Below are positions 16,734-61,135 of a stretch of DNA of 64,000 nucleotides, in pieces; within the stretch, counting starts at the first letter, position 1; each line of letters starts with the position of its first letter. The stretch spans positions 320,001 through 384,000 of the forward strand of contig CBDAOI010000004.1 of NCBI GenBank assembly GCA_965198005.1, given 5' to 3'. The position numbers and the translations under genes are program-made. A model generated the notes under the pieces. That model had not been told where the DNA came from. It saw nothing but the letters and a program-made list of their open reading frames with translations, and did not search any database. This DNA is from Spirochaetia bacterium. GTDB lineage: Bacteria; Spirochaetota; Spirochaetia; SZUA-6; Bin103.

Positions 16734-16924
16734 GGGGGGTTCCGCAGCCCGCACCTCACGTCGTTCCTGACCTGCAAGCGCTGATCAGTGCCGGTCTCGG
16801 ATTGATGTTCGAGGTGGCACACGGGAGCCGGGGTGGCGGACCGCGCGGCGTCAGCGGTGTCAGCGGTGGTAGGAAACGGCTTTGACGGGCATTTTGCGGG
16901 ATTCCGGGGGGTACCCTGGGGTAT

Positions 16925-18260
16925 GAGCGCCAGGCTAACTGGCATATGACAGAGGGTGAAAGTCCCTCGGAACGAAGGAGCAGCCAATCCACGTTTCTCC
17001 GCGAGCCGTGCGTTGGCACCTGCGAGGGTGCAGGCGAAGCGTCGGCAGCGGTGCGTGCGGGCAGAGTTATGGAGCGCCGCAAAATACGACATCTGGAGTG
17101 CCGAGACTCTGTACTCGGTCGAAGGCAACACCGGTCGAGCCAGTATGGTGAGGATCGACCGGGCTCCACGGCGTCGAAGAACTCAGGCACGTACGTACGT
17201 CATATACCGGGACCTGGGAGGTCTTCGGGTCGTCCCGGCGGGTCGTCGCCGGGACCGCGGAGGGAAGGCGTGAGGCTGGACCAAAGATGAACGACCCGAA
17301 GGAGTCGGACATGGGCATAGTAGCGGCGAAGCCGGCGAACAAGGGAGCGCAAGCGACTGCGGAGACGGTGGAGCGAAGGCCCATGACCAACGGGAATTCG
17401 CAAGGTCAAAGCACGGGCCGGACGCAGAGTCGGGCAACCGTGACACAGGCGGCCGAGCGGATACGAACCGCAGGAGTACGACGTGACGGGCGTTGGAAGT
17501 GCGCGAAGCGGCTGGACGGGATTGTACGACGGGGTTGGAAGTGCGCTTGCACGACCTGCACCGGCGAGTACACACAGGAGCGTACCGAGCGACCCCGGTA
17601 CGGCGGGTCAACAAGCGGGACTGGTTGATCAGATTCCTGGAGCATCGGATTGGAGATCGGCGGGTGCTGCGGCTGATAAAGAAGTGGCTGCGCGCTGGGG
17701 TACTGGAAGAAGGCCGACAGATCGACGCGGGGCGGGGTACAGCGCAAGGGTCGGTGATTTCACCGATGCTCGCGAATATCTATCTGCACTACGTGTTGGA
17801 CCTGTGGGTCACCAAGAAGTGGCGGCCGCAGGAGGCGCGCGGAGACATGATCATAGTGCGCTACGCAGATGACTATGTCGCCGGGTTCGAGCATCGTGAC
17901 GATGCGGAACGCTTCCTGCGGGAACTGAAGGAGCGATTCAGAGGCTTCGAGCTGGAACTGAACGCCGACAAGACCCGACTCCTCGAGTTTGGACGGTATG
18001 CCGAAAGGAACCGCCTGGCGCGCGGGGAAGGGCGACCGGAGACGTTCGACTTTCTGGGTTTCACGCATTATTGCAGGAAGGACAGGAAAGGACGCTTCGG
18101 GCTGGGGCGGAAGCCAATTCGGAAGCGGATGAATCGTACGCTGAAGAGGATCAAGATCGAGCTCCGCAGACGAATGCATGATGACGTGATGGAAACCGGG
18201 CGCTGGCTGGGACGGGTACTGCGCGGATGGCTCAACTACTACGCGGTACCCGCGACCTCC
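16925..18260 (+). mobile_element. degenerate group II intron 1 with fragmented reverse transcriptase; 3' end lost
   Basis: 5' GAGCGCC and domain I-like motifs (GCGAAGCG, GTGCCGA..GAAGGC); RT pieces from 17287: AQGSVISPMLANIYLHYVLD, RYADD, FDFLGFTH. Confidence 0.8.
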
Positions 18261-35958: not shown

Positions 35959-36966
35959 TCACAGCGTTCGCAAGAACGCCATCAGACCGGTGTCCTCCCG
36001 CCACGGTTTGGTCGTTTGCGGTTCGGTCGCGTCGCACAGAGAGATTGCCTTGGCCTTCGTCTCAAGGTCGATTTCGACGTAGACATTCGTTGTGTCCAGC
36101 TTGGCGTGGCCGAGCCATGCCCGAATCGTGTTGAGGTCCACGCCGGCACGCAACAGGTGAGTCGCCGTGGTGTGGCGAATCACGTGCGGGCTGACGCGCT
36201 TGCCGACCAGCGACGATACCCGGGCTGAGGCGACGGTCGCGCAGCGACCGACCAAGCGGCCGATGCCGAAGCGGGTGATCGGTTGTCCGTGCCGGTTGAG
36301 GAAGACCTGCTCCGCGGCAGGGCGCCCATCGACCAAAGCTGCCAGCAGGCGCGCCGTGCGCGGCCAGAGCGGGCACTGACGGACCTTGCCGCCCTTTCCG
36401 CGTACCGTTGCCAGAGAAGGATGCGACCCGGGGACGGTCAGTTGTAGATCGCCGACCGTGAGTTGCGCGGCCTCGGACGCCCGGACGCCGGTGTTGTAGA
36501 GGAACAGCAGCAGGGCACGCTCGCGGCGGCCCTGCCGCGTGCCGTGGTTGGGAGCGTCGAGTAAGGCGTCGATCTCGGACTTCTCCAGATAGGAGATCGG
36601 CTTGGGGGCCGCCTTCTTGCGGGGCAGAGCACGGATCTGCGTGCACCATTCGACGTGCTCGGGACTGCGGCTGCCGACGAAGCGGGCAAACGAACAGATG
36701 GCCGTGAGCCGCTGATTGCGGGTCTGCGGGGAGCAGCCCCGCGCATCTTCAAGATGTGCGAGGAACTGCAGCACACGCTCGGAGGTGAGATCGAAGACGG
36801 CCAGCCGGTCGACCGGTTTGCGCCGCGCGCGGCTGACGAAGGGGAGCAGCAAAACCAGCGTGTCACGGTAGCTGCGTTGAGTGTTGCGGGCCAGATTACG
36901 CTCACTCACCAGATGCTCCGCGAGGAAGCGTCGCAGCCAAGGGCCCAGAGTACGGGTATCAGTCAT
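35959..36966 (-). CDS. tyrosine recombinase (RitC-like)
   Basis: SYRDT, YNTGVRASE, GKGGK.R, SPHVIRHT, WLGH..LDTTNVY. Confidence 0.9.
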   Translation of the reverse strand: MTDTRTLGPWLRRFLAEHLVSERNLARNTQRSYRDTLVLLLPFVSRARRKPVDRLAVFDLTSERVLQFLAHLEDARGCSPQTRNQRLTAICSFARFVGSRSPEHVEWCTQIRALPRKKAAPKPISYLEKSEIDALLDAPNHGTRQGRRERALLLFLYNTGVRASEAAQLTVGDLQLTVPGSHPSLATVRGKGGKVRQCPLWPRTARLLAALVDGRPAAEQVFLNRHGQPITRFGIGRLVGRCATVASARVSSLVGKRVSPHVIRHTTATHLLRAGVDLNTIRAWLGHAKLDTTNVYVEIDLETKAKAISLCDATEPQTTKPWREDTGLMAFLRTL

Positions 36967-37905
36967 CGCGGCCTCCGGTTGCGGTCTCTGCGTAGCGCTC
37001 GAAGCGGAGCGAAGCCTCGCGCAGCAACTCAGGGGTCATGCTGAGATAGACAGCGGTTCCTGCGATGTTGACGTGGCCCAGGTAGGTGGAGAGGAATGGC
37101 AGCAAGCGTTGCACGTCCTTCCCTTGGCGGTACCAGGAGGTCAGTCGATGGACGGCGAACGAATGTCGCAGGTCGTGCAGGCGCGGCTGACGGCGGGCTC
37201 CGACCGGGTTCTGCACTCCAGCCGCTTGGCGCAAAGCGGCGAACGCCGTGTGCACGGTTGTGCGCGCCAGCGGCGTGCCATCGCGATTCGCAAGGAAAGG
37301 CAAATCGTGCGCTGCAGGGGCGGTGTAGGGCGCCCGCCGCGCGACGTATTCCGCGAGCACCTGGGTAAGGTGCGACCCCAGCGGCACGAGCCGGCTCTTG
37401 TAAAACTTGGTCGCGCACGGTGAGCAGCCCGGCCGGCAGGTCGACGTCGGCCGCGTGAGCCGCCGCGCTTCGCCGTGCCGCAAGCCGGCTCCGCCAACAG
37501 CAGCAGCGCGCGGAACGTGTGCGCCTGCAACTGCACCGCTCGCTTGCGACAGCCATCCACGGCGTCGAACAGGCGGCGCAGTTCGTCACGCGAATAGATG
37601 TACGCCGGTGCGGACGGGGGCTCCTTCGGTTCGTCCGCAGGCAACGGCGAATGGGTCGCGTGGCCGCGGCTGATCGCATAGCGGTAGAAACCGACGAGCA
37701 CCGTACGCTTGTTGGCCCGGTAGCGGGTGAGGAAGCCGTTGCCTGCGAGGAAGGCACGCGCCTGTTCGGTGCCTGCGGCGTCGCAGCCGACCTCGCCGCC
37801 GACGCTGCGGCAGTAGAGGTGCAGAATGCTGGCGCCGGACCTGAAGTGCGCACCCCGCGCTTGCCGCCAAGCGATGTATTGATCAACGACCTCAGCGAGC
37901 GTCAT
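36959..37905 (-). pseudogene. tyrosine recombinase (RitB-like), frameshifted
   Basis: MTLAEVVDQYIAWRQARG...YIYSRDEL; TKFYKSRLVP, LHDLRHSFA, STYLGH in another frame. Confidence 0.8.
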
Positions 37906-38060
37906 ATCAGCCACTCCAGGTCGATGTCCGCCACTTGGCGCAGTCCGGCGAGGTCGACCTTGGCGTATACCGCCGTTGTGGTCGGGCTGCGATGCCCGAG
38001 ATGGTCTCCGATCTCCTTGAACGACAGCCCTTGGTCCAACAGGCGCTGCGCGCATGCGTG
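37902..38060 (-). pseudogene. tyrosine recombinase (RitA-like), C-terminal remnant
   Basis: HACAQRLL..G.SFKEIGDHLGHRS..TT.VYAKVD. Confidence 0.8.
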
Positions 38061-38516
38061 GACGCGCCAGGATGGCGTAAGCGTAGTGACCGGTGGCCGG
38101 TGATGTTCGGTGACGTGCGAGTCGTTGACAGGCTGGTCGCGTCCATAGCAAGCTTGCCTCGCCTCGGCTTCGACGGATCGATGATGACGCGCCATGACGA
38201 CAGTCAGCGCAGTGACCGGTTGGCGGTGACGTTCGGTGACCGCCGAGTCGTTGACAGGCGCGCCGCGCCTATGCTAGCGTGCCTCGCTTGGGGCGACGGA
38301 TGCCGATGAAGCGCCATGATGACAGTCAGCGCAGTGACGGGTTGCCGGTGACCTTCGCTCACCCCGGTGACCCCCACGAGTCGTTGACGGCGCGCCGCGC
38401 CTATGCTAGCGTGCCTCACTTGGGGTTCGACGGATGGTCATGAAGGGTCACGATGACAGGCAGCGCAGTGACCGGTTAGTTGTGACGCAGCCAGTGCATC
38501 CTGCTACCCCCCCCCC
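38061..38516 (+). repeat. leader repeat array (3 full units plus a partial) ending in TA(C)10
   Basis: TTGAC at 38125, 38251, 38384 (periods 126, 133). Confidence 0.9.
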
Positions 38517-38728
38517 ATTACGCACCGAGAAACAACTAACCGCCCCGGCTGATCGCTCCGTACGCGACCCCGCGCACGCCGTCGCCTTCACCACCGCCGT
38601 AGCTGTCGGTGGTGCCGGCTCGGTCCATCGCCGAACCGGCATGCGGACCGCCCGCGCCCTTCCCGCCGACCGCAACGGTGCCGGATCCCCGCCTGCGACT
38701 AACTGCGAGGGCACCCTGTGCCCCAAGA

Positions 38729-40352
38729 GTCGGACTACCGCACCGGGCTCCTGCCTCAGGTATGACGCCAAGGCGGTACAAGGGATAGGGATGGCACACT
38801 CGGGGCGGTGGCAACCAGTGGTCGAGCAGACGGCTCATCCGCTCCCAGGTAAGCCGGGTTTTCTGACTGCGCCGCCGCATCGACCGATACCAGAGCCGAC
38901 CAACCCGGAGGCGGAACAGGCGGAGTGCGCGGGAGTTCGTGGGTACCCCGTAGTAGCGCAGGTGCCCACCCACAACCGAGCGCAGCCAGCTTCCCACCTC
39001 CGGGACCGGATCGTGCAGGCGCCGCCGAAGCTCGGCATCCGAGCGGTGTCGGAATCCGACGACGATGTCATCCGCGTAGCGCACGACGATCACCTCGCCA
39101 CGCGCCTGCGTCTGCCGCCAGCGCCGGACCCACAGGTCGAACACGTAGTGCAGGTAGATGTTGGCAAGAAGCGGCGAAGCGCTGCCTCCCTGCGGCGTCC
39201 CCTGTTCGCTGCGTGTCCGCGTCCCACCGTGGTCGATGGCATCGAAGAACCCACGGATGTCCATGTCGAGCACCCAGTTCACCTTCCGTGTCAGCAGGCC
39301 CACATAGAGTGCGTCCAACGCATTGTGTTGGCTGCGCCCCGGGCGGAACCCGTAACTGAACCCGAGAAAATCGGTCTCGTAGATGGCGTTCAGCACCTCG
39401 ACCGTCGCACGCTGGACGATCTTGTCTTCCAGCGCCGTCACGCCGAGCGGTCGTTGCCGCCCGTCGGTCTTGGGGACGAACACCCTCCGCACCGGCTTCG
39501 CCCGGTACGCTCCTCGCTGCAGCCGTCCACAGAGGTCCAGGAGGTTGCCCTCCAGGTCCCCTCCGTACTGCCGCCACGTCACCCGGTCCACCCCCGGCGC
39601 GGCTTCCCGCTTGAGGCTGAAGTACGCCTCCCGGAGGATCGCGGGGTTGTCGACGTGGTGCATGAGCGCGGTGAACCGCAGCGTCCTATCCCGTCGCGCT
39701 GCTTGACGTATCCGCTCCAGCGCACTGAGCGCGCCCTCCCGGCGCAGTGTCCGGGGCGCGTTTTGCTGGCGCGGATTCCCTTTGGCCAGGCCCCTTTCCT
39801 CCACCCGCTCCGCGGCCCGGTTGCTGCCGGCCGGCGTGACCGTAGGTTCTCCCTTGGCTGTATCCGGCGTTTCCGCCTGCGTGCCCGTGTAGGGTTCACC
39901 ATAGCCGCGCCGCCTGAGGCAGCTCCCGTCCTTGTTCGCGGGCTTCTCAGGTACTACGGGCCTGTCCGACTTCCCAGCTCCGTTCATCGTCGGCGTCCGT
40001 CCTTGGACTTCCCGACACGGCCTGCGGCGCCATCCGCCACAGGCGAAGCTGGGATCTCCCGGCTCCCGCGCAAGGTGTTTCCGTACGTGCCCGGGGTCTG
40101 TGACCGCGCAGGGTCCCGTGGCGCCTCGCGATATCGGCGCCCCGGGTGTGGCCTTCCGCCTCCTCCTAAGGCGTCGGCACCCCGAAGTAATCTCGTTTCG
40201 CGGCTCGATACCCGGCCCGCACGTACCCCTGTCAACGCTTCACCCCCGCCCTCGCGAGCGGCGGCGCATGACTCGGGGCCGTCGTGGGTCGCTAGCCCTT
40301 CGACGTATGACTCTCTCATTCACAACAACCTTGCCGGTTTTTGCCGGCGCAC
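38729..40352 (-). mobile_element. group II intron 2 (class E-like) with internally deleted RT and damaged domain V/VI
   Basis: Starts GTGCGCC (40352), ends GAC (38729); boundaries fixed by the empty site at 53581-53600; RT motifs PQGGSASP, YADD. Confidence 0.9.
38750..39987 (-). pseudogene. ltrA: intron-encoded reverse transcriptase/maturase with two internal deletions
   Basis: AAPGVD, RPLGV, SYGFRP, DIRGFFD then a jump to GTPQG; YADD then a jump to domain X. Confidence 0.85.
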
Positions 40353-40363
40353 AGGAGGTGAAG

Positions 40364-40399
40364 ATGATACTGAAAGAACCGCACGCGCGCGCGGTGTGA
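40364..40399 (+). CDS. putative 11-aa leader peptide MILKEPHARAV
   Basis: SD AGGAGGTGA; four homologous copies in the window. Confidence 0.55.
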   Translation: MILKEPHARAV

Positions 40400-40485
40400 G
40401 CCGGGGTGAACTACGGGCCTGGTTCCCGCTCCCCCTGTGAGTCACCCGCCGCGCGCTTTTCGTGTATTGGACTCAGACTGGCAGA

Positions 40486-40543
40486 GCCCGCGTTGCGGGC
40501 GCGAGAGTAGCCAGGGAGCGCAAGTCGCTCCGCAATACTCTCG
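40486..40543 (+). ncRNA. candidate cis-regulatory two-hairpin RNA motif (copy 1)
   Basis: GCCCGC-GTT-GCGGGC plus CGAGAGTA...GGAGCG/CGCTCC...TACTCTCG just before the SBP3 start. Confidence 0.6.
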
Positions 40544-40567
40544 AAAAATCCACATAGGGAGAAACCT

Positions 40568-42364
40568 ATGAACATTGCAATAATTAGAATGACCTTCGCG
40601 ATTGCGTTGGTCCTGATTCTGAGCGCAACCGGCCTGTGGGCCGCCGGCTCAGAAGAGGAGCCGGCAGCCGCTGCCGACAAGAAGTATGTGACCGACCCCA
40701 CCACCGGCAAAGCGGTGAGCGCGCCAGAGTATGGCGGGACATTGACCTGGGCTGGTGCTTACAATCCTTCGACTACTGATTCCTGGAACTATGGCGGGAC
40801 TGTCGCCACCGCCGGCGTTCTACAGATGCTAGCAATGGCGGACTGGGGAGTGGACAGGAGTGTCTTTAACCTCAAGACCATGTACGTACCTATGTCTCAC
40901 ATGAAAGGGGTGCTGGCGGAAAGCTGGGAGCAGCCCGACGACACAACGATAATCTTCCACATCCGGAAGGGCGTTCACTGGCACAATAAGCCACCGGTGA
41001 ACGGTCGGGAGCTAACTGCCGATGATGTCGTATATAACTGGCACCGTCTATTGGGACTGGGCAAGTTCAGTGAAGCCGGACCTACCCCAGCACATAGATT
41101 CGTAGCGAGATTCGAATCGGTAACGGCCACCGACGATTGGACGGTTGTTTTTAAGCTCGAGAAGCCATCCCTCGCTGGAATGTTTGATATCCTCCTCAAC
41201 TCCCGTGCTGCTATAAACTCCCCCGAGGTAATCGAGGAACACGGTGATGTTGCGGACTGGAGGAACCTGGTCGGCACCGGGCCCTTTATGCTGACTGACT
41301 GGACCGAGGACGTCTCTCTGACCTGGACCAAGAATCCTGACTACTGGGGCTTTGACGAAAAATACCCGGAGAACCGCCTGCCCTATGTTGACGAGACCAT
41401 AGCTCTGATCATGAAAGATGAGGCAACACGAATAGCGGCACTGCGCACGGGTGTGGTCGATGCCCTGGAAAATGCTGGCTCTGCTCAAATAAAATCTATC
41501 GACGCGGCGGAGAGGCTCAAGGAGACCAACCCCGAACTCGTGTTCTGGCCTTTTTCGATTCGGTCGGAGACGTCTGGTGCCTATAACACTACGAAGCCGC
41601 TCTTTGACGACATCAGGGTGCGCCACGCGATGCAGATGGCACTAGACCTCGAGACGATTAACAATACCTACTATAAGGGTTACGCAGATTGGATACCTCA
41701 GGGGATTGTAGGGACAGGCCTTACGGAGTATTTCGTCCCATTTGAAGAGTGGCCTGAAGAGGTCAAGCAATACTATATCTATGACCCGGAAGGGGCAGAA
41801 GCGTTGCTTGATGAGGCTGGATATCCGCGCGGCGCCGACGGCATTAGATTCAAGACCACATTCGAATGCTCGGAAACTCTTGATGTAGGCGGTTTTGAAT
41901 TATTCGCTGGGTACTGGCGTGAGATTGGCGTTGATGTAGAGGTCATGCCACTCGAGAGCGCCACTCATGTGGCTAATATACAGACCCATGCTTATGAAGG
42001 TCTGGTCGGTGTACCGCAGGGCCTCGATTATACCGAACCCCTTGGGGTTTTCAAATCATTTCTTTACACGGATGCGCTATGGAACCAATCGGGGATTAGC
42101 ATCCCGGAACTGGACGCCATGATTGACGCCGCCGGAGCGACTCTGGACATGCAAGAGAAAATCAGGTTGTCTAAAGAGATCAATATGTACGCGTTAGAGA
42201 ACCACTGGTACTTGTGGGGTCCTAGAGTTCCAAACTTTCTGGTGTACCAGCCGTGGATTATAGGTTTCAACGGTGAATATGACTTGGGGGTTAATCAAAG
42301 ATTTGCTAACCTCTTCGCCCGTCTCTGGATTGATAGTGAGCTGAAGAAATCCATGGGTCATTAG
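40568..42364 (+). CDS. family 5 ABC substrate-binding protein (SBP3)
   Basis: Signal peptide LWAAG, PEYGG, LAESW, GTGPF, ARLWID. Confidence 0.93.
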   Translation: MNIAIIRMTFAIALVLILSATGLWAAGSEEEPAAAADKKYVTDPTTGKAVSAPEYGGTLTWAGAYNPSTTDSWNYGGTVATAGVLQMLAMADWGVDRSVFNLKTMYVPMSHMKGVLAESWEQPDDTTIIFHIRKGVHWHNKPPVNGRELTADDVVYNWHRLLGLGKFSEAGPTPAHRFVARFESVTATDDWTVVFKLEKPSLAGMFDILLNSRAAINSPEVIEEHGDVADWRNLVGTGPFMLTDWTEDVSLTWTKNPDYWGFDEKYPENRLPYVDETIALIMKDEATRIAALRTGVVDALENAGSAQIKSIDAAERLKETNPELVFWPFSIRSETSGAYNTTKPLFDDIRVRHAMQMALDLETINNTYYKGYADWIPQGIVGTGLTEYFVPFEEWPEEVKQYYIYDPEGAEALLDEAGYPRGADGIRFKTTFECSETLDVGGFELFAGYWREIGVDVEVMPLESATHVANIQTHAYEGLVGVPQGLDYTEPLGVFKSFLYTDALWNQSGISIPELDAMIDAAGATLDMQEKIRLSKEINMYALENHWYLWGPRVPNFLVYQPWIIGFNGEYDLGVNQRFANLFARLWIDSELKKSMGH

Positions 42365-53212: not shown

Positions 53213-53603
53213 ACTTTTTCGAACCGAGAAACAACTAACCGCTCCGGTTGATCGCCGCGTACGCGACCCCGCGCACGCGGGCGCCTTCACCACCGCCGTA
53301 GCTATAGCTATCGGTTGCGCCGGCTCGGTCCATCGCCAAACCGGCATGCGGACCGGCCACGCCCTTCCCGGCGATCGCAACCGTCCCGGATCCCCGCCCG
53401 CGACTGACTGCCGGCAAAACCCACCGCCGGCGTCGCCAGCCATTCAGACTCGCTGCTTCGCCGACTACGACCCCGCGTGGCGTTGTGACGCAGGTCCCGA
53501 CGTCCGCCGAGCGGTGGGCGTTTGCATGATGGGGCGCGCACGCGGATCCCATGTTACGTCAGCCATCTGGCAGGGCACCATGTGCCCCAAGAAGGAGGTG
53601 AAG

Positions 53604-53639
53604 ATGATACTGAAAGAACCGCACGCGCGCGCGGCGTGA
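53604..53639 (+). CDS. putative leader peptide MILKEPHARAA (intron-free site)
   Basis: Perfect SD AAGGAGGTGA. Confidence 0.55.
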   Translation: MILKEPHARAA

Positions 53640-53716
53640 GCCCGGGTGAACCCGGTGAGTCACACGCCGCGCGCATCACAAATTGACTCAGACTGGCCGT
53701 CCGCGTTGGCGGGCGC

Positions 53717-53775
53717 GCCCGCGTTGCGGGCGTCAGAGTAGCCAGGGAGCGGCAATCCGCTCCGCAATACTCTCG
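53717..53775 (+). ncRNA. candidate cis-regulatory RNA motif (copy 3)
   Basis: GCCCGC-GTT-GCGGGC plus AGAGTA...GGAGCGG/CCGCTCC...TACTCT. Confidence 0.6.
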
Positions 53776-53798
53776 AAATAACATTCAAGGAAGAAACG

Positions 53799-55598
53799 AT
53801 GAAGATATTTTTTGCAAGGACCTTCGCGGTTGCGTTGGTCCTAGTTCTGACCGCAACCGGCCTGTGGGCCGGCGGTGGCACAGAAGACGCACCGGCAACC
53901 GCTGCCGACAAGAAGTATGTGACCGACCCCTCCACCGGCAAGGTGGTGGTGGCGCCACAGTACGGCGGGACATTGACCTTTGCCTGGGCGATCGAGCTAG
54001 CACATGCTGACTGCTATTTCTCCCATGTCCCATGTCTGGCCGTCGGTGGCGTTAATGAGAAGCTAGGAATCATGAACTGGGCAATAGATAGGGATGAATT
54101 TTCCTTTGGAAGCACGTACGACCCTCCATTTACCCTAATACCGCACCTGGCGGAAAGCTGGGATATTTCCCCGGACGGCCTCACCTATACCTTCAACATC
54201 CGTAAGGGCGTTAACTGGCACAATAAGCCACCGATGAACGGTCGGGAGTTTACTGCCGAGGACTTCGTATTTAACTGGCATCGTTATGTGGGTCTGGGCA
54301 GCGGCTACACCGAACCTGCTGCCTATTACGCCTCGGCTCCGCCCGTTGTTCTGCCATACGAATCGGTAACGGCCACCGATAAATATACGGTTGTCGTTAA
54401 GCTGACGGAGCCAGCCCCCAAGGCGCTGGATACTATCCTCGACGGCAACGTCTTTTTTCTATACCCCCCCGAGGTAATCAAGGAACACGGGGACGTTAGG
54501 GATTGGAGGAACCTGGTCGGTACCGGGCCCTATATGCTGACTGACTGGGTGGAGGGCAGCTCTATCACCTATAACAAGAATCCTGACTACTGGAAAAACG
54601 ACGAGAAGTACCCGGAGAATCGTCTGCCCTACATTGACGAGTTGCAGCTCTTTTTCATCAAAGAGGAAGCAACACGTCTGGCGGGACTGCGCGCCGGTAG
54701 GATTGATTTACTGGGTTTCCCTACTGATATCACGTCGGTCGACGAGGTTGATAGCCTCCGGAAGACCAACCCTGAAATCGTGCTGCTCCCGTGGTGGGAC
54801 CGTTCGGAAACGTCTTATGGCATTGACGCAAGCAAGCCGCCCTTTGACGACATCAATGTGCGCAAGGCAATGCAGATGGCATTGGACCTCGAGGGCATTG
54901 ACCGCAGCTTCTACAAGGGCGCCGCATTGTGGCAGCCTCAGGGTATGGTAGGGGAAGCTATCAGCGCGTACCACACCCCATTTGAAGAGTGGCCCGAAGA
55001 GGTCAAGAAGGGCTATATGTACGATCCCGCAGGGGCGGAAGCTTTGCTGGATGAGGCCGGATATCCGCGCGGCGCGGACGGCACTCGATTCAAGACCGTG
55101 TTGAACCATTTCTATCGGTTTGATTTAGGCTATAGTGAATTAGCTGCCACCTACTGGGCGGATATTGGCGTTGATGTGGAGATAAACGTATTGGATGAGG
55201 CTAGTGCTCCCGCTGTTCGAACGGAACGTACTTGGGAAGGTCTGATATCTCACGCTCTGGGCAACAATACTGAGCCAGTGGGGGCTATACGCCGCAATGC
55301 ACACTCGACCGGCGACGATAACTTACACCGAGTCGGGTACCCTGAGTTGGACGCCCTTGTTGAAGCCGCCGAAGCCACTACCTCCATCGAAGAGCAGACG
55401 AGGCTGGTTAAAGAGATAGATATGTACATGATGGAGAACCACTGGTGGGTATGGGGTCCTAAAACTGGAAAGTACATGGCGCACCAGCCGTGGGTCATAG
55501 GTTTTAACGGTGAAGTTTGGCTTACAGTACTGGGCCGAATGGAAGTCTTCGCCCGCCTCTGGATTGATAGTGAGCTAAAGGAGGCAATGGGTCGTTAG
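53799..55598 (+). CDS. family 5 ABC substrate-binding protein (SBP5)
   Basis: Same motif set as SBP3. Confidence 0.93.
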   Translation: MKIFFARTFAVALVLVLTATGLWAGGGTEDAPATAADKKYVTDPSTGKVVVAPQYGGTLTFAWAIELAHADCYFSHVPCLAVGGVNEKLGIMNWAIDRDEFSFGSTYDPPFTLIPHLAESWDISPDGLTYTFNIRKGVNWHNKPPMNGREFTAEDFVFNWHRYVGLGSGYTEPAAYYASAPPVVLPYESVTATDKYTVVVKLTEPAPKALDTILDGNVFFLYPPEVIKEHGDVRDWRNLVGTGPYMLTDWVEGSSITYNKNPDYWKNDEKYPENRLPYIDELQLFFIKEEATRLAGLRAGRIDLLGFPTDITSVDEVDSLRKTNPEIVLLPWWDRSETSYGIDASKPPFDDINVRKAMQMALDLEGIDRSFYKGAALWQPQGMVGEAISAYHTPFEEWPEEVKKGYMYDPAGAEALLDEAGYPRGADGTRFKTVLNHFYRFDLGYSELAATYWADIGVDVEINVLDEASAPAVRTERTWEGLISHALGNNTEPVGAIRRNAHSTGDDNLHRVGYPELDALVEAAEATTSIEEQTRLVKEIDMYMMENHWWVWGPKTGKYMAHQPWVIGFNGEVWLTVLGRMEVFARLWIDSELKEAMGR

Positions 55599-59449: not shown

Positions 59450-60075
59450 GCGCTGTTGACAGGGTGGCCGCGCTCGCGAGAGAGTGCACCGTTAGGAGTT
59501 CGGCGAATGCGGATGATGCGCCACGACGACCGCCAGCGCAGTGAAGGGCTGAGGTGCGCAAGTTCAGCCGATCACAGAGCCGGGCGTGGCAAGGTGCACC
59601 ATGCCAGAATCGCTGTTGACTTTTTCTGACATTCGGGTTGATCAGCGCAGTGGCCGGTCGGCGGTCACGGTCGGTGACCTCGGTGACCTCCGAGTCGTTG
59701 ACAGGGTGGTCGCGTCCATAGCAAGCTTGCCTCGCTTGGGGTTCGACGGATCGATGATGACGCGCCATGACGACAGTCAGCGCAGTGACCGGTTGGCGGT
59801 GACGTTCGGTGACCGCCGAGTCGTTGACAGTGCGCCGCGCCTATGCTAGCGTGCCTCGCTTGGGGCGACGGATGCCGATGAAGCGCCATGATGACAGTCA
59901 GCGCAGTGACGGGTTGCCGGTGACCTTCGCTCACCCCGGTGACCCCCACGAGTCGTTGACGGCGCGCCGCGCCTATGCTAGCGTGCCTCACTTGGGGTTC
60001 GACGGATGCCGATGAAGCGCCATGATAACAGTCAGCGCAGTAGCCGGTTGGCGGTGACGCAGCCGATGTACCCCC
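59450..60075 (+). repeat. leader repeat array (4-5 units) ending in TA(C)5
   Basis: TTGAC at 59456, 59616, 59698, 59824, 59956. Confidence 0.9.
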
Positions 60076-60278
60076 TAACCGCTCGGGCTGATCGCCCCGT
60101 ACGCGACCCCGCGCACACCGTCGCCTTCACCACCGCCGTAGCTATCGGTGGCGCCCGCTCGGTCCATCGCCGAACCGGCATGCTGGCCGCCCGCGTCCTT
60201 CCAGGCGACCGCAACCGTCCCGGATCCCCGCCCGCGACTAACTGCGCGCAAAACCCACCGCCTGCGTTGGCGGCCATT

Positions 60279-61124
60279 CAGGAGGTTGCCCTCCAGGTCC
60301 CTGCCGTACTGGCGCTTCCGCCACGTCACCCGGTCCACCCCCGGCGCGGCTTCCCGCTTGAGGCTGAAGTACGCCTCCCGGAGCATCGCGGGGTTGTCGA
60401 CGTGGTGCATGAGCGCGGTGAACCGCAGCGTCCTATCCCGTCGCGCTGCTTGACGTATCCGCTCCAGCGCACTGTGCACGCCATATTGCCGGCGCGGTGT
60501 CCGGGGCGCGTTTTGCTGGCGCGGATTCCCTTTGGCCAGGCCCCTTTCCTCCGCCCGCTCCGCGGCCCGAGGACTACCGGCCGGCGTGGCCGTAGGTGCT
60601 CCCTTGGCTGTGTCCGGCGTTTCCGCCTGCGTGCCCGTGTAGGGTTCACCATAGCCGCGCCGCCTGCGGCAGCTCCCGTCCTTGTTCGCGGGTTTCCCAG
60701 GTACCCCGCAGGGCGGCCGCCAGGCCGGGGGCCTGTCCGACTTCCCAGCTCCGTTCATCGTCGGCGTACGTCCTTGGACTTCCCGACACGGCCTGCGGCG
60801 CCATCCGCCACAGGCGAAGCTGGGATCTCCCGGCTCCCGCGCAAGGTGTTTCCGTACGTGCCCGGGGTCTGTGACCGCGCAGGGTCCCGTGGCGCCTCGC
60901 GATATCGGCGCCCCGAGTGTGGCCTTCCGCGTCCTCCTACAGCGTCGGCACCCCGAAGTAATCTCCTTTCGCGGCTCGATACCCGGCCCGCACGTACCCC
61001 TGTCAACGCTTCACCCCCGCCCTCGCGGGCGACGGCGCATGACTCGGGGCCGCCGTGGGTCGCTAACCCTTCGACGTATGACTCTTTCATTCACAACAAC
61101 CTTGCCGGTTTTTTGCCGGCGCAC
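60279..61124 (-). mobile_element. group II intron 3 (sister of intron 2), 3' part deleted
   Basis: GTGCGCC start at 61124 abutting AGGAGGTG; highly similar to 39538-40352. Confidence 0.9.
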
Positions 61125-61135
61125 AGGAGGTGAAG

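Follow-up and report, generated by a model that had tools for sequence, protein, structure and literature searches.

A group II intron at the edge of a Shine–Dalgarno sequence, and the Shine–Dalgarno-like exon-binding loop of its lineage

An intron inserted in a transporter-gene leader

What directs a group II intron to the upstream edge of a Shine–Dalgarno (SD) sequence, on the strand opposite to the gene? The question is raised by a decayed intron, here called copy A, in a 64,000-nucleotide stretch of DNA from a sponge-associated Spirochaetia bacterium (assembly GCA_965198005.1, contig CBDAOI010000004.1; C4:320001–384000 of a 4.9-Mb genome in four contigs). This whole stretch is referred to as the window, and positions are those of the window unless a contig is named. 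Copy A lies in the leader of a gene for a solute-binding protein (SBP) of an ABC transporter, exactly at the upstream edge of the SD and antisense to the gene, and the SD, the spacer and the start codon are retained. We consider it very probable that copy A represents a compact group II intron, lacking an endonuclease and now dead, whose lineage carries an exon-binding site 1 (EBS1) that mimics the SD, and that this lineage homed repeatedly into the leader. The features at the filled and empty leaders are as follows.

38729–40352, minus strand: decayed group II intron, copy A, 1624 bp, from 5′ GTGCG to CCGAC 3′; it fills a paralogous empty site exactly and matches RF02005
40094–40314, minus strand: domain I core, Rfam RF02005 (group-II-D1D4-6), 185.9 bits, full-length over model positions 1–225
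38729–39987, minus strand: reverse transcriptase (RT)/maturase remnant with no stop codon before the intron end; TIGR04416, 220.1 bits, and alignment to the intact relative protein in L038
38734–38750, minus strand: 5′ half of domain V (GAGCCCGGTGCGGTAGT), by comparison with the longer copy B; the 3′ half and domain VI are deleted in copy A
40353–40358, plus strand: SD AGGAGG of the leader mini-ORF (open reading frame, ORF), which is intron-binding site 1 (IBS1), CCTCCT, on the intron strand, from the junction reading and leader comparison
40364–40399, plus strand: leader mini-ORF of 11 codons, MILKEPHARAV then stop, the first element of the 81-copy SBP leader
40568–42364, plus strand: SBP gene (SBP_bac_5) past the filled leader; PF00496, 230 bits
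53593–53639, plus strand: empty target, with SD AGGAGG at 53593–53598 and mini-ORF at 53604–53639, from paralogue comparison
60280–61124, minus strand: sister intron matching RF02005, 3′-truncated past an internal CCTCCT, with EBS1 AGGAGG at 60938–60933; its flank GAATGG... is part of the normal upstream module

On the intron strand, the 5′ junction of copy A reads CATCTTCACCTCCT/GTGCGCCGGC at 40353/40352 (in longer context, GGTTCTTTCAGTATCATCTTCACCTCCT/GTGCGCCGGCAAAAACCGG) and the 3′ junction reads GTAGTCCGAC/TCTTGGGGCACA at 38729/38728 (in longer context, GCGGTAGTCCGAC/TCTTGGGGCACAGGGTGCCCT), where the slash marks the boundary. The paralogous empty site runs uninterrupted through 53581–53606 (TGTGCCCCAAGA/AGGAGGTGAAGATG, insertion point 53592/53593), and the 1624 bases of copy A are therefore a precise insertion. 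A preliminary description of this DNA had proposed that this empty site is filled by a minus-strand intron, and both junctions, together with an RF02005 score far above the gathering score of 49, bear this out. It had also pointed to a sister intron with the same 5′ junction and the same hexamer; the sister junction, at 61125/61124, is indeed identical to that of copy A, AGGAGG is retained there, and RF02005 matches the sister at 60865–61085 on the minus strand (181.1 bits).

The boundaries and the state of decay were read by comparison with copy B (C4:409954–411884), in which the ORF is followed by domain V (GAGCCCGGTGCGGTAGTTCCGCTCGCCGGGATC) and then by domain VI; the latter has a bulged A, and its end reads CTACTCCAAC/TCTT. 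RF00029 matched copy B only (C4:409954–410028), where its 37.1 bits just missed the gathering score of 40. Copy A has the 5′ end GTGCG and has kept the terminal CCGAC (38733–38729) despite the deletion in domains V and VI, so its 3′ boundary is genuine. Alignment of the RT to the L038 protein showed a gap of 30 aa between RT3 and RT4 (near 39226) in both copies A and B, and a further 84 aa missing after YADD (near 39034) in copy A only. Because of these two in-frame deletions, copy A scores below the TIGR04416 cut-off of 300 bits, which the intact sister family passes with 350.5 bits. The RT deletion is present in every copy of this intron family (family A) in the genome; the family is a fossil, and all of its copies here are dead.

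The leader, which consists of the SD, the mini-ORF MILKEP... and GC-rich nested hairpins, occurs in 81 copies in the genome, four of them in the window (40353, 48227, 53593 and 61125). A frame of at least 200 codons lies within 700 nt after 79 of the 81 copies. These are paralogous SBP_bac_5 genes: 2551 of 3081 possible pairs can be aligned across more than 300 aa, the median identity being 49%, and the leader core is ~90% identical. The ATG that the preliminary description had taken for the SBP start lies 5 nt past the SD and opens the 11-codon mini-ORF, while the SBP frame itself starts at 40568. In some leader copies the mini-ORF ends after six codons (CCG TAG), so that it may not be conserved as a peptide. 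A search of the leader for known RNAs in Rfam, at E up to 1, gave a chance-level osmY match alone (16.2 bits against a gathering score of 46.9). Several alternative upstream modules precede the insertion point across the leader copies, and homology between leaders frequently breaks at the insertion point or at most 4 bases from it, empty copies included. The SBP gene's own ribosome-binding site (RBS; GGGAGAAACCTATG), further downstream, itself folds, when read on the opposite strand (40553–40570, minus), into a terminator-like hairpin that has a T-run.

The EBS1 loop and its exon partner across the lineage

The hexamer that faces the SD complement lies in a terminal hairpin of domain I.

40151–40178, minus strand: EBS1 hairpin GCCGA-CGCC-TTAGGAGGA-GGCG-GAAGGC, with hexamer AGGAGG at 40167–40162, from the Rfam structure line and covariation

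The inner part, CGCC-TTAGGAGGA-GGCG, occupies 40173–40157 on the minus strand, and AGGAGG falls inside the 9-nt loop of the hairpin (GCCGA-CGCC-UUAGGAGGA-GGCG-GAAGGC), a loop that is not conserved in the consensus of the Rfam alignment. Relatives were collected from public genomes with the copy B protein as query, and the best 80 of 543 confirmed related loci were taken. The 5′ junction was mapped by pattern in 57 of them, 17 had the hairpin without a matching 5′ end and 6 had no recognisable hairpin; L076 was dropped as a likely mis-call, leaving 56 introns with a mapped junction. The loop hexamer and exon positions −6 to −1 form all six possible pairs in 50 of these introns, five in another five and four in the remaining one. 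On an alignment of 51 relatives and five copies from this genome (56 introns), 98.2% of cells in the IBS1–EBS1 helix are paired, compensatory changes on both sides occur at all six pairs, and the hairpin stem covaries too. None of 500 shuffles of this alignment reached the observed pairing or covariation values. When the partner was slid by one column, pairing fell to 39–59% for the 13 tested pairs taken jointly (six EBS1–IBS1 and seven stem pairs).

The exon follows the register of the loop exactly, as in AGGAGA/TCTCCT, AAGGAG/CTCCTT, CAGGAG/CTCCTG, AGGAGC/GCTCCT, ATGCAT/ATGCAT and CCGAAG/CTTCGG (loop/exon), and in this family the pairing ends at the 5′ splice site, as in group II introns. 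These results uphold the earlier proposal that AGGAGG is an EBS1 loop pairing with IBS1 CCTCCT. The RF02005 family is carried by 9 of 151 genomes of the same phylum (G000 counted in both numbers). In low-GC members with a clear GTGYG start, read by eye, the same loop complements the last 5–6 bases of non-SD exons (GACUAG/CUAGUC in L004, UUAUAC/GUAUGA in L007 and GGAAGC/GCUUCU in L014).

The relatives are full-length introns, mostly of 1915–1918 nt, with complete domains V and VI and the end CCTACTCCGAC. Among the 74 with a recognisable hairpin, the EBS1 hexamer contains GGAG in 52, distributed as follows.

AAGGAG: 22 of 74 relatives
AGGAGA: 16 of 74 relatives
CAGGAG: 4 of 74 relatives
AGGAGC: 3 of 74 relatives
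AGGAGG: 2 of 74 relatives
other hexamers containing GGAG: 5 of 74 relatives

The other 22 loops lack GGAG, and fourteen of them belong to one subgroup with GACACA/G and an exon ending in CGTGTC. The lineage was found in Acidobacteriota, Planctomycetota, Gemmatimonadota, Alphaproteobacteria, Ignavibacteria and a Methylomirabilis metagenome-assembled genome (MAG), besides the bacterium studied here.

A target gene was scored at the 47 loci with at least 330 nt of 5′ exon, as a start codon 7–21 nt from the junction that opens an ORF of at least 50 aa. This test was passed by 39 of the 47; of 10,087 control positions taken from those flanks, 19.8% passed. The start codon of the passing loci lies at 12–14 nt in 37 and is ATG in 35, and in thirty the ORF has at least 100 aa or is open to the end of the locus; the eight failing loci include all five non-SD loops of the set. 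The reverse complement of the 5′ exon opens with an SD-like word in this set, and the introns are antisense to the target gene. A Pfam scan of ten longer target ORFs matched eight of them to unrelated families (aldo/keto reductase, amidase, periplasmic binding protein, alpha/beta hydrolase, TrbL, methyltransferase, glyoxalase and 3-demethylubiquinone-9 3-methyltransferase), and the sites are therefore real RBSs of ordinary genes.

A domain I tree was built with the exon and EBS1 columns left out. SD-like loops fall on both sides of its midpoint root, and the non-SD loops form scattered tips or small groups; this quick FastTree with an arbitrary root, from which we read no direction, would fit an ancestral, maintained SD-like guide with occasional retargeting. 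Whether a widespread endonuclease-less lineage with an SD-mimicking loop homes into the template strand at the upstream edge of RBSs, its register shifting along the SD (AGGAGA, AAGGAG, CAGGAG, AGGAGC, AGGAGG) with the exon following, is in our view evenly balanced; RBSs would then be a further niche defined by a generic signal. By way of speculation, a loop that mimics the SD might in principle come into contact with the anti-SD tail of 16S rRNA as well.

Introns occur in tandem at two loci. The 3′ end in L058 reads ...CTCCGAC and is followed, after a single T, by a second 5′ end, and at the 5′ end of L069 such a 3′ end runs into a second copy that lacks its first G, which suggests repeated insertion at one RBS.

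The start codon had been proposed as a second element read by the intron, through an EBS2 in the internal loop.

40190–40194, minus strand: GAGAT in an internal loop, the EBS2 candidate; its pairing with ATCTT is at chance level across the clade

GAGAU (40194–40190) is complementary to AUCUU at exon positions −13 to −9, which overlap the complement of the ATG. The best helices between each intron's internal loop and its own exon (−15 to −7) averaged 4.04 bp, compared with 3.89 bp for mismatched intron/exon pairs, and helices of at least 5 bp occurred in 16 of 56 own pairs and in 25% of mismatched ones. The same intron variant was also found beside differing sequences at −7 to −15. The reading of the start codon is therefore not supported, and EBS2/IBS2 was rejected as a determinant of the site; of the claim that the intron reads the SD plus the start codon, the first part stands, by way of EBS1 and the SD complement, and the second is not sustained. 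A hint within family A, where copy A and the sister combine GAGAU with AUCUU and copy B combines GGAAU with AUUC, is not strong enough to be counted. In low-GC relatives, again read by eye, the preceding internal loop complements bases further upstream and is an EBS2 (AACCCAA/UUGGGUU in L007 and GCGCGU/ACGCGU in L004). According to the published excerpts on which we draw, here and for all papers cited below, class E/F introns can splice without EBS2 but need EBS1 (PMC3753933).

The pairing would explain how a site is read, and the abundance of RBSs among the sites calls for its own explanation. Only the hexamer and the following T might be read, with low specificity, and purifying selection against genic insertions might then leave the introns at RBSs without any RBS-directed choice; we hold this to be a real possibility, if somewhat short of an even one. 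It draws on the first 3′ exon base, which is T in 38 of 50 relatives, on the chance-level EBS2 pairing and on the exon, where no position outside −6 to −1 is conserved save CAT at the natural SD spacing and a T-richness at −7/−8. Selection of this kind is compatible with the pairing mechanism, since it bears only on why the sites are RBSs, but it does not by itself give the restriction of family A to the leader described below, which needs either extra recognition or a much stronger tolerance at redundant SBP paralogues.

Repeated insertion into the 81-copy leader

A family A intron with its 5′ end fills 18 of the 81 leaders. AGGAGG is present at all 18 filled sites and at 44 of the 63 empty ones (Fisher p = 0.0048), the remaining empty leaders reading AGGGGG, TGGAGG and similar. 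All ten BLAST copies that bear intron base 1 lie directly after ...CCTCCT. A census of the flanks had been named as a check in the preliminary description, and its outcome agrees with the proposed target, every family A copy with a 5′ end following CCTCCT (18 of 18).

Two pairs of filled loci are 100% identical over both intron and SBP gene (C1_4928/C4_1735505 and C2_7727/C3_799083) and are duplications or assembly redundancy. One might ask on this account whether the filled leaders all go back to a single insertion, copied by segmental duplication or transferred by gene conversion from one very similar leader to another, with no repeated retrohoming involved; the ~90% identity of the leader cores would permit conversion, and copies with the same spacer (for example copy B, C3_979368 and C3_760776) could be its products. 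The other filled loci, however, make this improbable. Their first 400 intron nucleotides are 95–99% identical between loci whose SBP genes are only 68–78% identical, and near-identical introns beside diverged genes therefore point to repeated homing rather than duplication. The two copies in the window follow the same pattern (introns 97% and adjoining SBP genes 71% identical), so that the two filled sites there are not one duplicated insertion, the case in which, by the preliminary description, the repeated-homing claim would fall. At least six spacers separate the SD and ATG at filled sites (TGAAG, TTCGA, TTCAAA, TGCAAA, CCCGA and TGCAC). Copies A and B lie in different leader subfamilies, each of which has empty paralogues matching on both flanks, with the 3′ flank of copy B being the ...GTAGATCTAGAGAAGA upstream module and that of copy A the ...CCTGTGCCCCAAGA module. 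Diverged intron remnants, 71–88% identical and representing several sub-lineages, occupy the same leader position. Judged from these comparisons, the leader appears to have been invaded many times over a long period, and retrohoming would be the process that filled it.

The genome contains 2925 AGGAGG hexamers, of which 407 are RBS-like and lie outside the leader. No family A intron was found at these 407 sites, all 18 junctions being in the leader. Only 12–14% of such hexamers in this genome are RBS-like, most of the others lying in coding DNA. In this genome, family A does not read SDs at large but is leader-specific, and EBS2 does not account for that specificity. The gene is on the G-rich strand at 15 of 18 filled and 36 of 63 empty leaders (p = 0.054, with two filled sites being duplicates and the GC skew weak); on that bias, which is suggestive only, the antisense intron would sit in the putative leading-strand template, opposite to the second intron family described below.

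Truncated introns in the regions of 60280/60279, C3:977688 and C4:418984 are joined to the same hairpin-bearing part of an upstream module (GAATGGCCGCCAACGCAGGCGGTGGGTTTT...). In the sister copy the break comes right behind a CCTCCT inside the ORF of the intron itself, for which self-targeting and a deletion hotspot are alternatives.

The preliminary description had held that the intron separates the SBP genes from a promoter array. A scan for sigma-70-like sites gave none in 53250–53900 and none in 38000–40600, although host promoters may differ from the consensus, and with no promoter demonstrated the claim was not sustained. The sequence so described is a 126-bp tandem repeat (3.3 copies, 80% matches) at 38064–38477, between recombinase genes and the intron; similar units also occur at about 59700–60100. 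An intron that lies antisense to the SBP transcript cannot be removed from it by splicing. In contigs from RNA-type libraries labelled as sponge metagenome, stretches unique to the SBP gene and stretches unique to the intron have similar low depth (~8–25), with DNA carry-over possible. A joint from 38728 to 40353 appears in all four runs, but its shorter side, of 21 letters, is a stretch shared with paralogous empty leaders, so that it shows neither splicing nor an empty allele.

The intron sits between a variable upstream module and a constant leader, and two weak terminator-like hairpins within it face the SBP direction, an arrangement that might be expected of an antisense intron co-opted as a regulatory insert to silence or re-wire particular SBP paralogues. 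Such co-option is very unlikely, as the copies have decayed in different ways (truncation at positions 22, 107, 180, 203, 441 and 815, with internal deletions besides), which is a pattern of neutral decay and not of conservation.

Proposed mechanism, intron class and known systems

Group II introns reverse-splice into the DNA strand that bears IBS1, cDNA is made by the protein that the intron encodes (IEP), and endonuclease-less proteins prime from replication (PMC4424553, PMC12584367). Living members of the present lineage would accordingly leave their host RNA as an RNA–protein particle and reverse-splice into DNA at a site set mainly by the six-base EBS1. Because the loop is itself an SD-like word (AGGAGG here; AGGAGA, AAGGAG and CAGGAG in relatives), it would pair with the SD complement on the template strand of the gene. 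Entry would then fall exactly at the upstream edge of the SD with the intron pointing away from the gene, the SD, spacer and start codon would be kept together, and the coding sequence would stay intact. The landing place would be non-coding DNA that every genome offers many times. Use of the SD complement as IBS1 would keep the SD with its start codon, which only the antisense orientation could achieve. The site may thus act as a safe harbour, and the insert may have some effect on SBP expression. In this genome, one sub-lineage would have homed repeatedly into the mini-ORF SD of the 81-copy leader, filled 18 copies and then decayed.

The intron RNA, judged from RNA features rather than from IEP phylogeny, is probably IIB-like and compact, with hallmarks of class E/F. 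Reported class E/F features are a 5-nt domain V loop, a small ribozyme of 450–700 nt and an α′ element on a terminal stem-loop in DId3 (PMC3753933). The domain V loop has 5 nt both in copy B (GCGG-UAGUU-CCGC) and in the relatives (GCGG-GAAAC-CCGC), and a second terminal hairpin, a candidate α′ counterpart, follows the EBS1 hairpin. The non-coding length is ~435–440 nt, slightly below the 450–700 nt given for class E/F ribozymes without the IEP. Class C (IIC), which was considered on account of the small size and the IIC-like top matches in the Protein Data Bank (PDB), was rejected because EBS1 pairs over 6 bp, family members have an EBS2 and the catalytic triad is AGC. Membership of group IIC is likewise at odds with the 6-nt covarying IBS1 and with the distance of the nearest hairpin, whose stem ends 23 nt before the site.

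53622–53638, minus strand: terminator-like hairpin followed by TTCTTT on the intron strand, its stem ending 23 nt and its T-rich tail ~13 nt upstream of the insertion point

IIC-like, structure-directed insertion at this hairpin and its TTCTTT, with the AGGAGG complementarity as a secondary matter, is scarcely credible: the tail does end close upstream of the site and the best solved relatives of the IEP are IIC enzymes, but IBS1 pairs over the full 6 bp with in-register covariation, the RBSs occupied by the relatives are unrelated and share no upstream sequence, and the insertions of IIC introns, which use short pairings, lie at the terminator motif or immediately downstream of it (PMC4424553, PMC12584367).

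Several observations weigh against our reading of copy A as a dead member of a lineage with an SD-mimicking EBS1 that homed repeatedly into the leader. With the pattern used, 23 of the 80 loci gave no 5′ junction, and L076 was excluded in addition. The loops of 22 of 74 relatives are not SD-like, and SD targeting thus does not extend to the whole clade. Family A is confined to the leader (18 of 18) despite the 407 other RBS-like AGGAGG sites, the EBS2 pairing is not significant, and the enrichment of RBSs may owe much to selection against genic insertions rather than to recognition. The genome holds no intact family A copy, so mobility is not demonstrable from these copies. The solved IEPs nearest to that of the intron are IIC enzymes (150.9 and 148.6 bits, where a IIB enzyme gave 123.4 and a IIA enzyme 115.5), within a PDB reference set that spans IIA, IIB (CL) and IIC only and does not separate class E from class F.

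The introns resemble several known systems without coinciding with any of them. They share the small size and the 5-nt domain V loop with class E/F introns, and have a candidate for the extra terminal stem-loop in DId3 of that class, for which the excerpted text mentions neither an SD-like EBS1 nor RBS targeting (PMC3753933). With the IIC terminator introns they have in common the lack of an endonuclease, compactness, a generic non-coding signal found genome-wide, a short pairing and the possibility of many copies; those introns use a DNA hairpin with a 3–5-nt IBS1 and no EBS2 (PMC4424553, PMC12584367), whereas here the 6-bp EBS1–IBS1 pairing is itself the functional signal, the SD complement, in an apparently IIB-like RNA with an AGC triad and with EBS2 in other members of the Rfam family. 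The IIC-attC introns also insert opposite to the transcription of the neighbouring gene and at a repeated non-coding motif between genes, but what they target is not the SD but attC, in the form of its folded bottom strand with TTGT/T, and they belong to another intron class (PMC7923331, PMC3001079). RmInt1 of Sinorhizobium meliloti is similarly endonuclease-less and IIB-like and multiplies through a repeated homing site, ISRm2011-2; this site lies inside an insertion sequence and is read by EBS1, EBS2 and EBS3 (PMC1802570), unlike that of family A, whose repeat is a cellular regulatory leader and whose EBS2 pairing is not evident.

A further parallel is the IIB1 start/stop-codon lineage, which is monophyletic and tied to translation signals of protein-coding genes; it inserts within or next to the codon itself and carries a 300–700-nt insertion at the base of domain I (PMC12584367). 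Its best-studied member splices from the groEL transcript in vitro (PMC12584367), and we take the lineage to be sense-oriented on that ground. Assignment to that lineage was rejected, the present introns being antisense, at an SD edge 12–14 nt from the start codon and minimal in domain I. No description of intron targeting antisense to an SD or RBS was found in full-text searches of the literature or in the excerpts of PMC3552965, PMC7923331 and PMC4028801; older subscription papers and the intron database lie outside this coverage, and a prior description is possible. The local element is an ordinary dead intron, and the interest lies in the SD-mimicking guide of the lineage as a whole.

Avoidance of harm to the host is regarded as the way in which group II introns survive in bacteria. 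A 2015 review lists homing sites, terminators and attC sites as their target specificities (PMC4424553), and the introduction of a 2025 paper adds the start/stop-codon lineage (PMC12584367); the strategies reviewed are few, namely homing to a unique site in other mobile DNA, the use of terminators or of attC sites and, in one small lineage, a place at start or stop codons (PMC4424553, PMC12584367). If the present reading is right, the recognition of RBSs from the opposite strand would be an added and simple strategy, in which a six-base guide reads a signal that stands before hundreds of genes. It would account for the high copy numbers in some soil Acidobacteriota MAGs, and it would be a natural case of minimal programmable targeting, by EBS1 alone, that could inform targetron design. 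The introns would also serve as a marker for functional RBSs and as a way to study what an antisense insert of 1.9 kb, placed between promoter and SD, does to expression. The filled sites, in turn, would date the 81-copy transporter-gene leader and mark it as an old, repeatedly invaded target.

Other elements were noted in the window and the genome. Overlapping or adjacent tyrosine-recombinase ORFs lie at 35959–38151 (minus strand), two of which match Phage_integrase while a third frame of 336 aa has no Pfam match; presumably they resemble a 'recombinase in trio' element, and their frames look disrupted. The third RF02005 match in the window (16959–17183, plus strand, 169.5 bits) belongs to a different intron, at 16921/16925–18256 (plus strand). 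This second RF02005 family has ~20 genome copies (for example L001 168–2087) and is ~70% identical to family A; its IEP of 493 aa is intact in all 12 copies examined, and the window copy is internally deleted. By alignment with relatives, its 5′ start is seemingly GAGCGCC rather than GUGCG, and GAGCG is also found in three relatives of other phyla. On that start, the loop GUACUC pairs with exon ends GGGUAC, GGGUAU or GGGUGC, and 17 of 19 copies are on the G-rich strand. A ~630-nt member of the same RNA family that lacks an ORF lies at C3:29295–29926 (minus strand) of G000, where it matches RF02005 with 155 bits and RF00029 with 31.8 bits, and its loop UGCUGC complements its own exon end GCAGUG.

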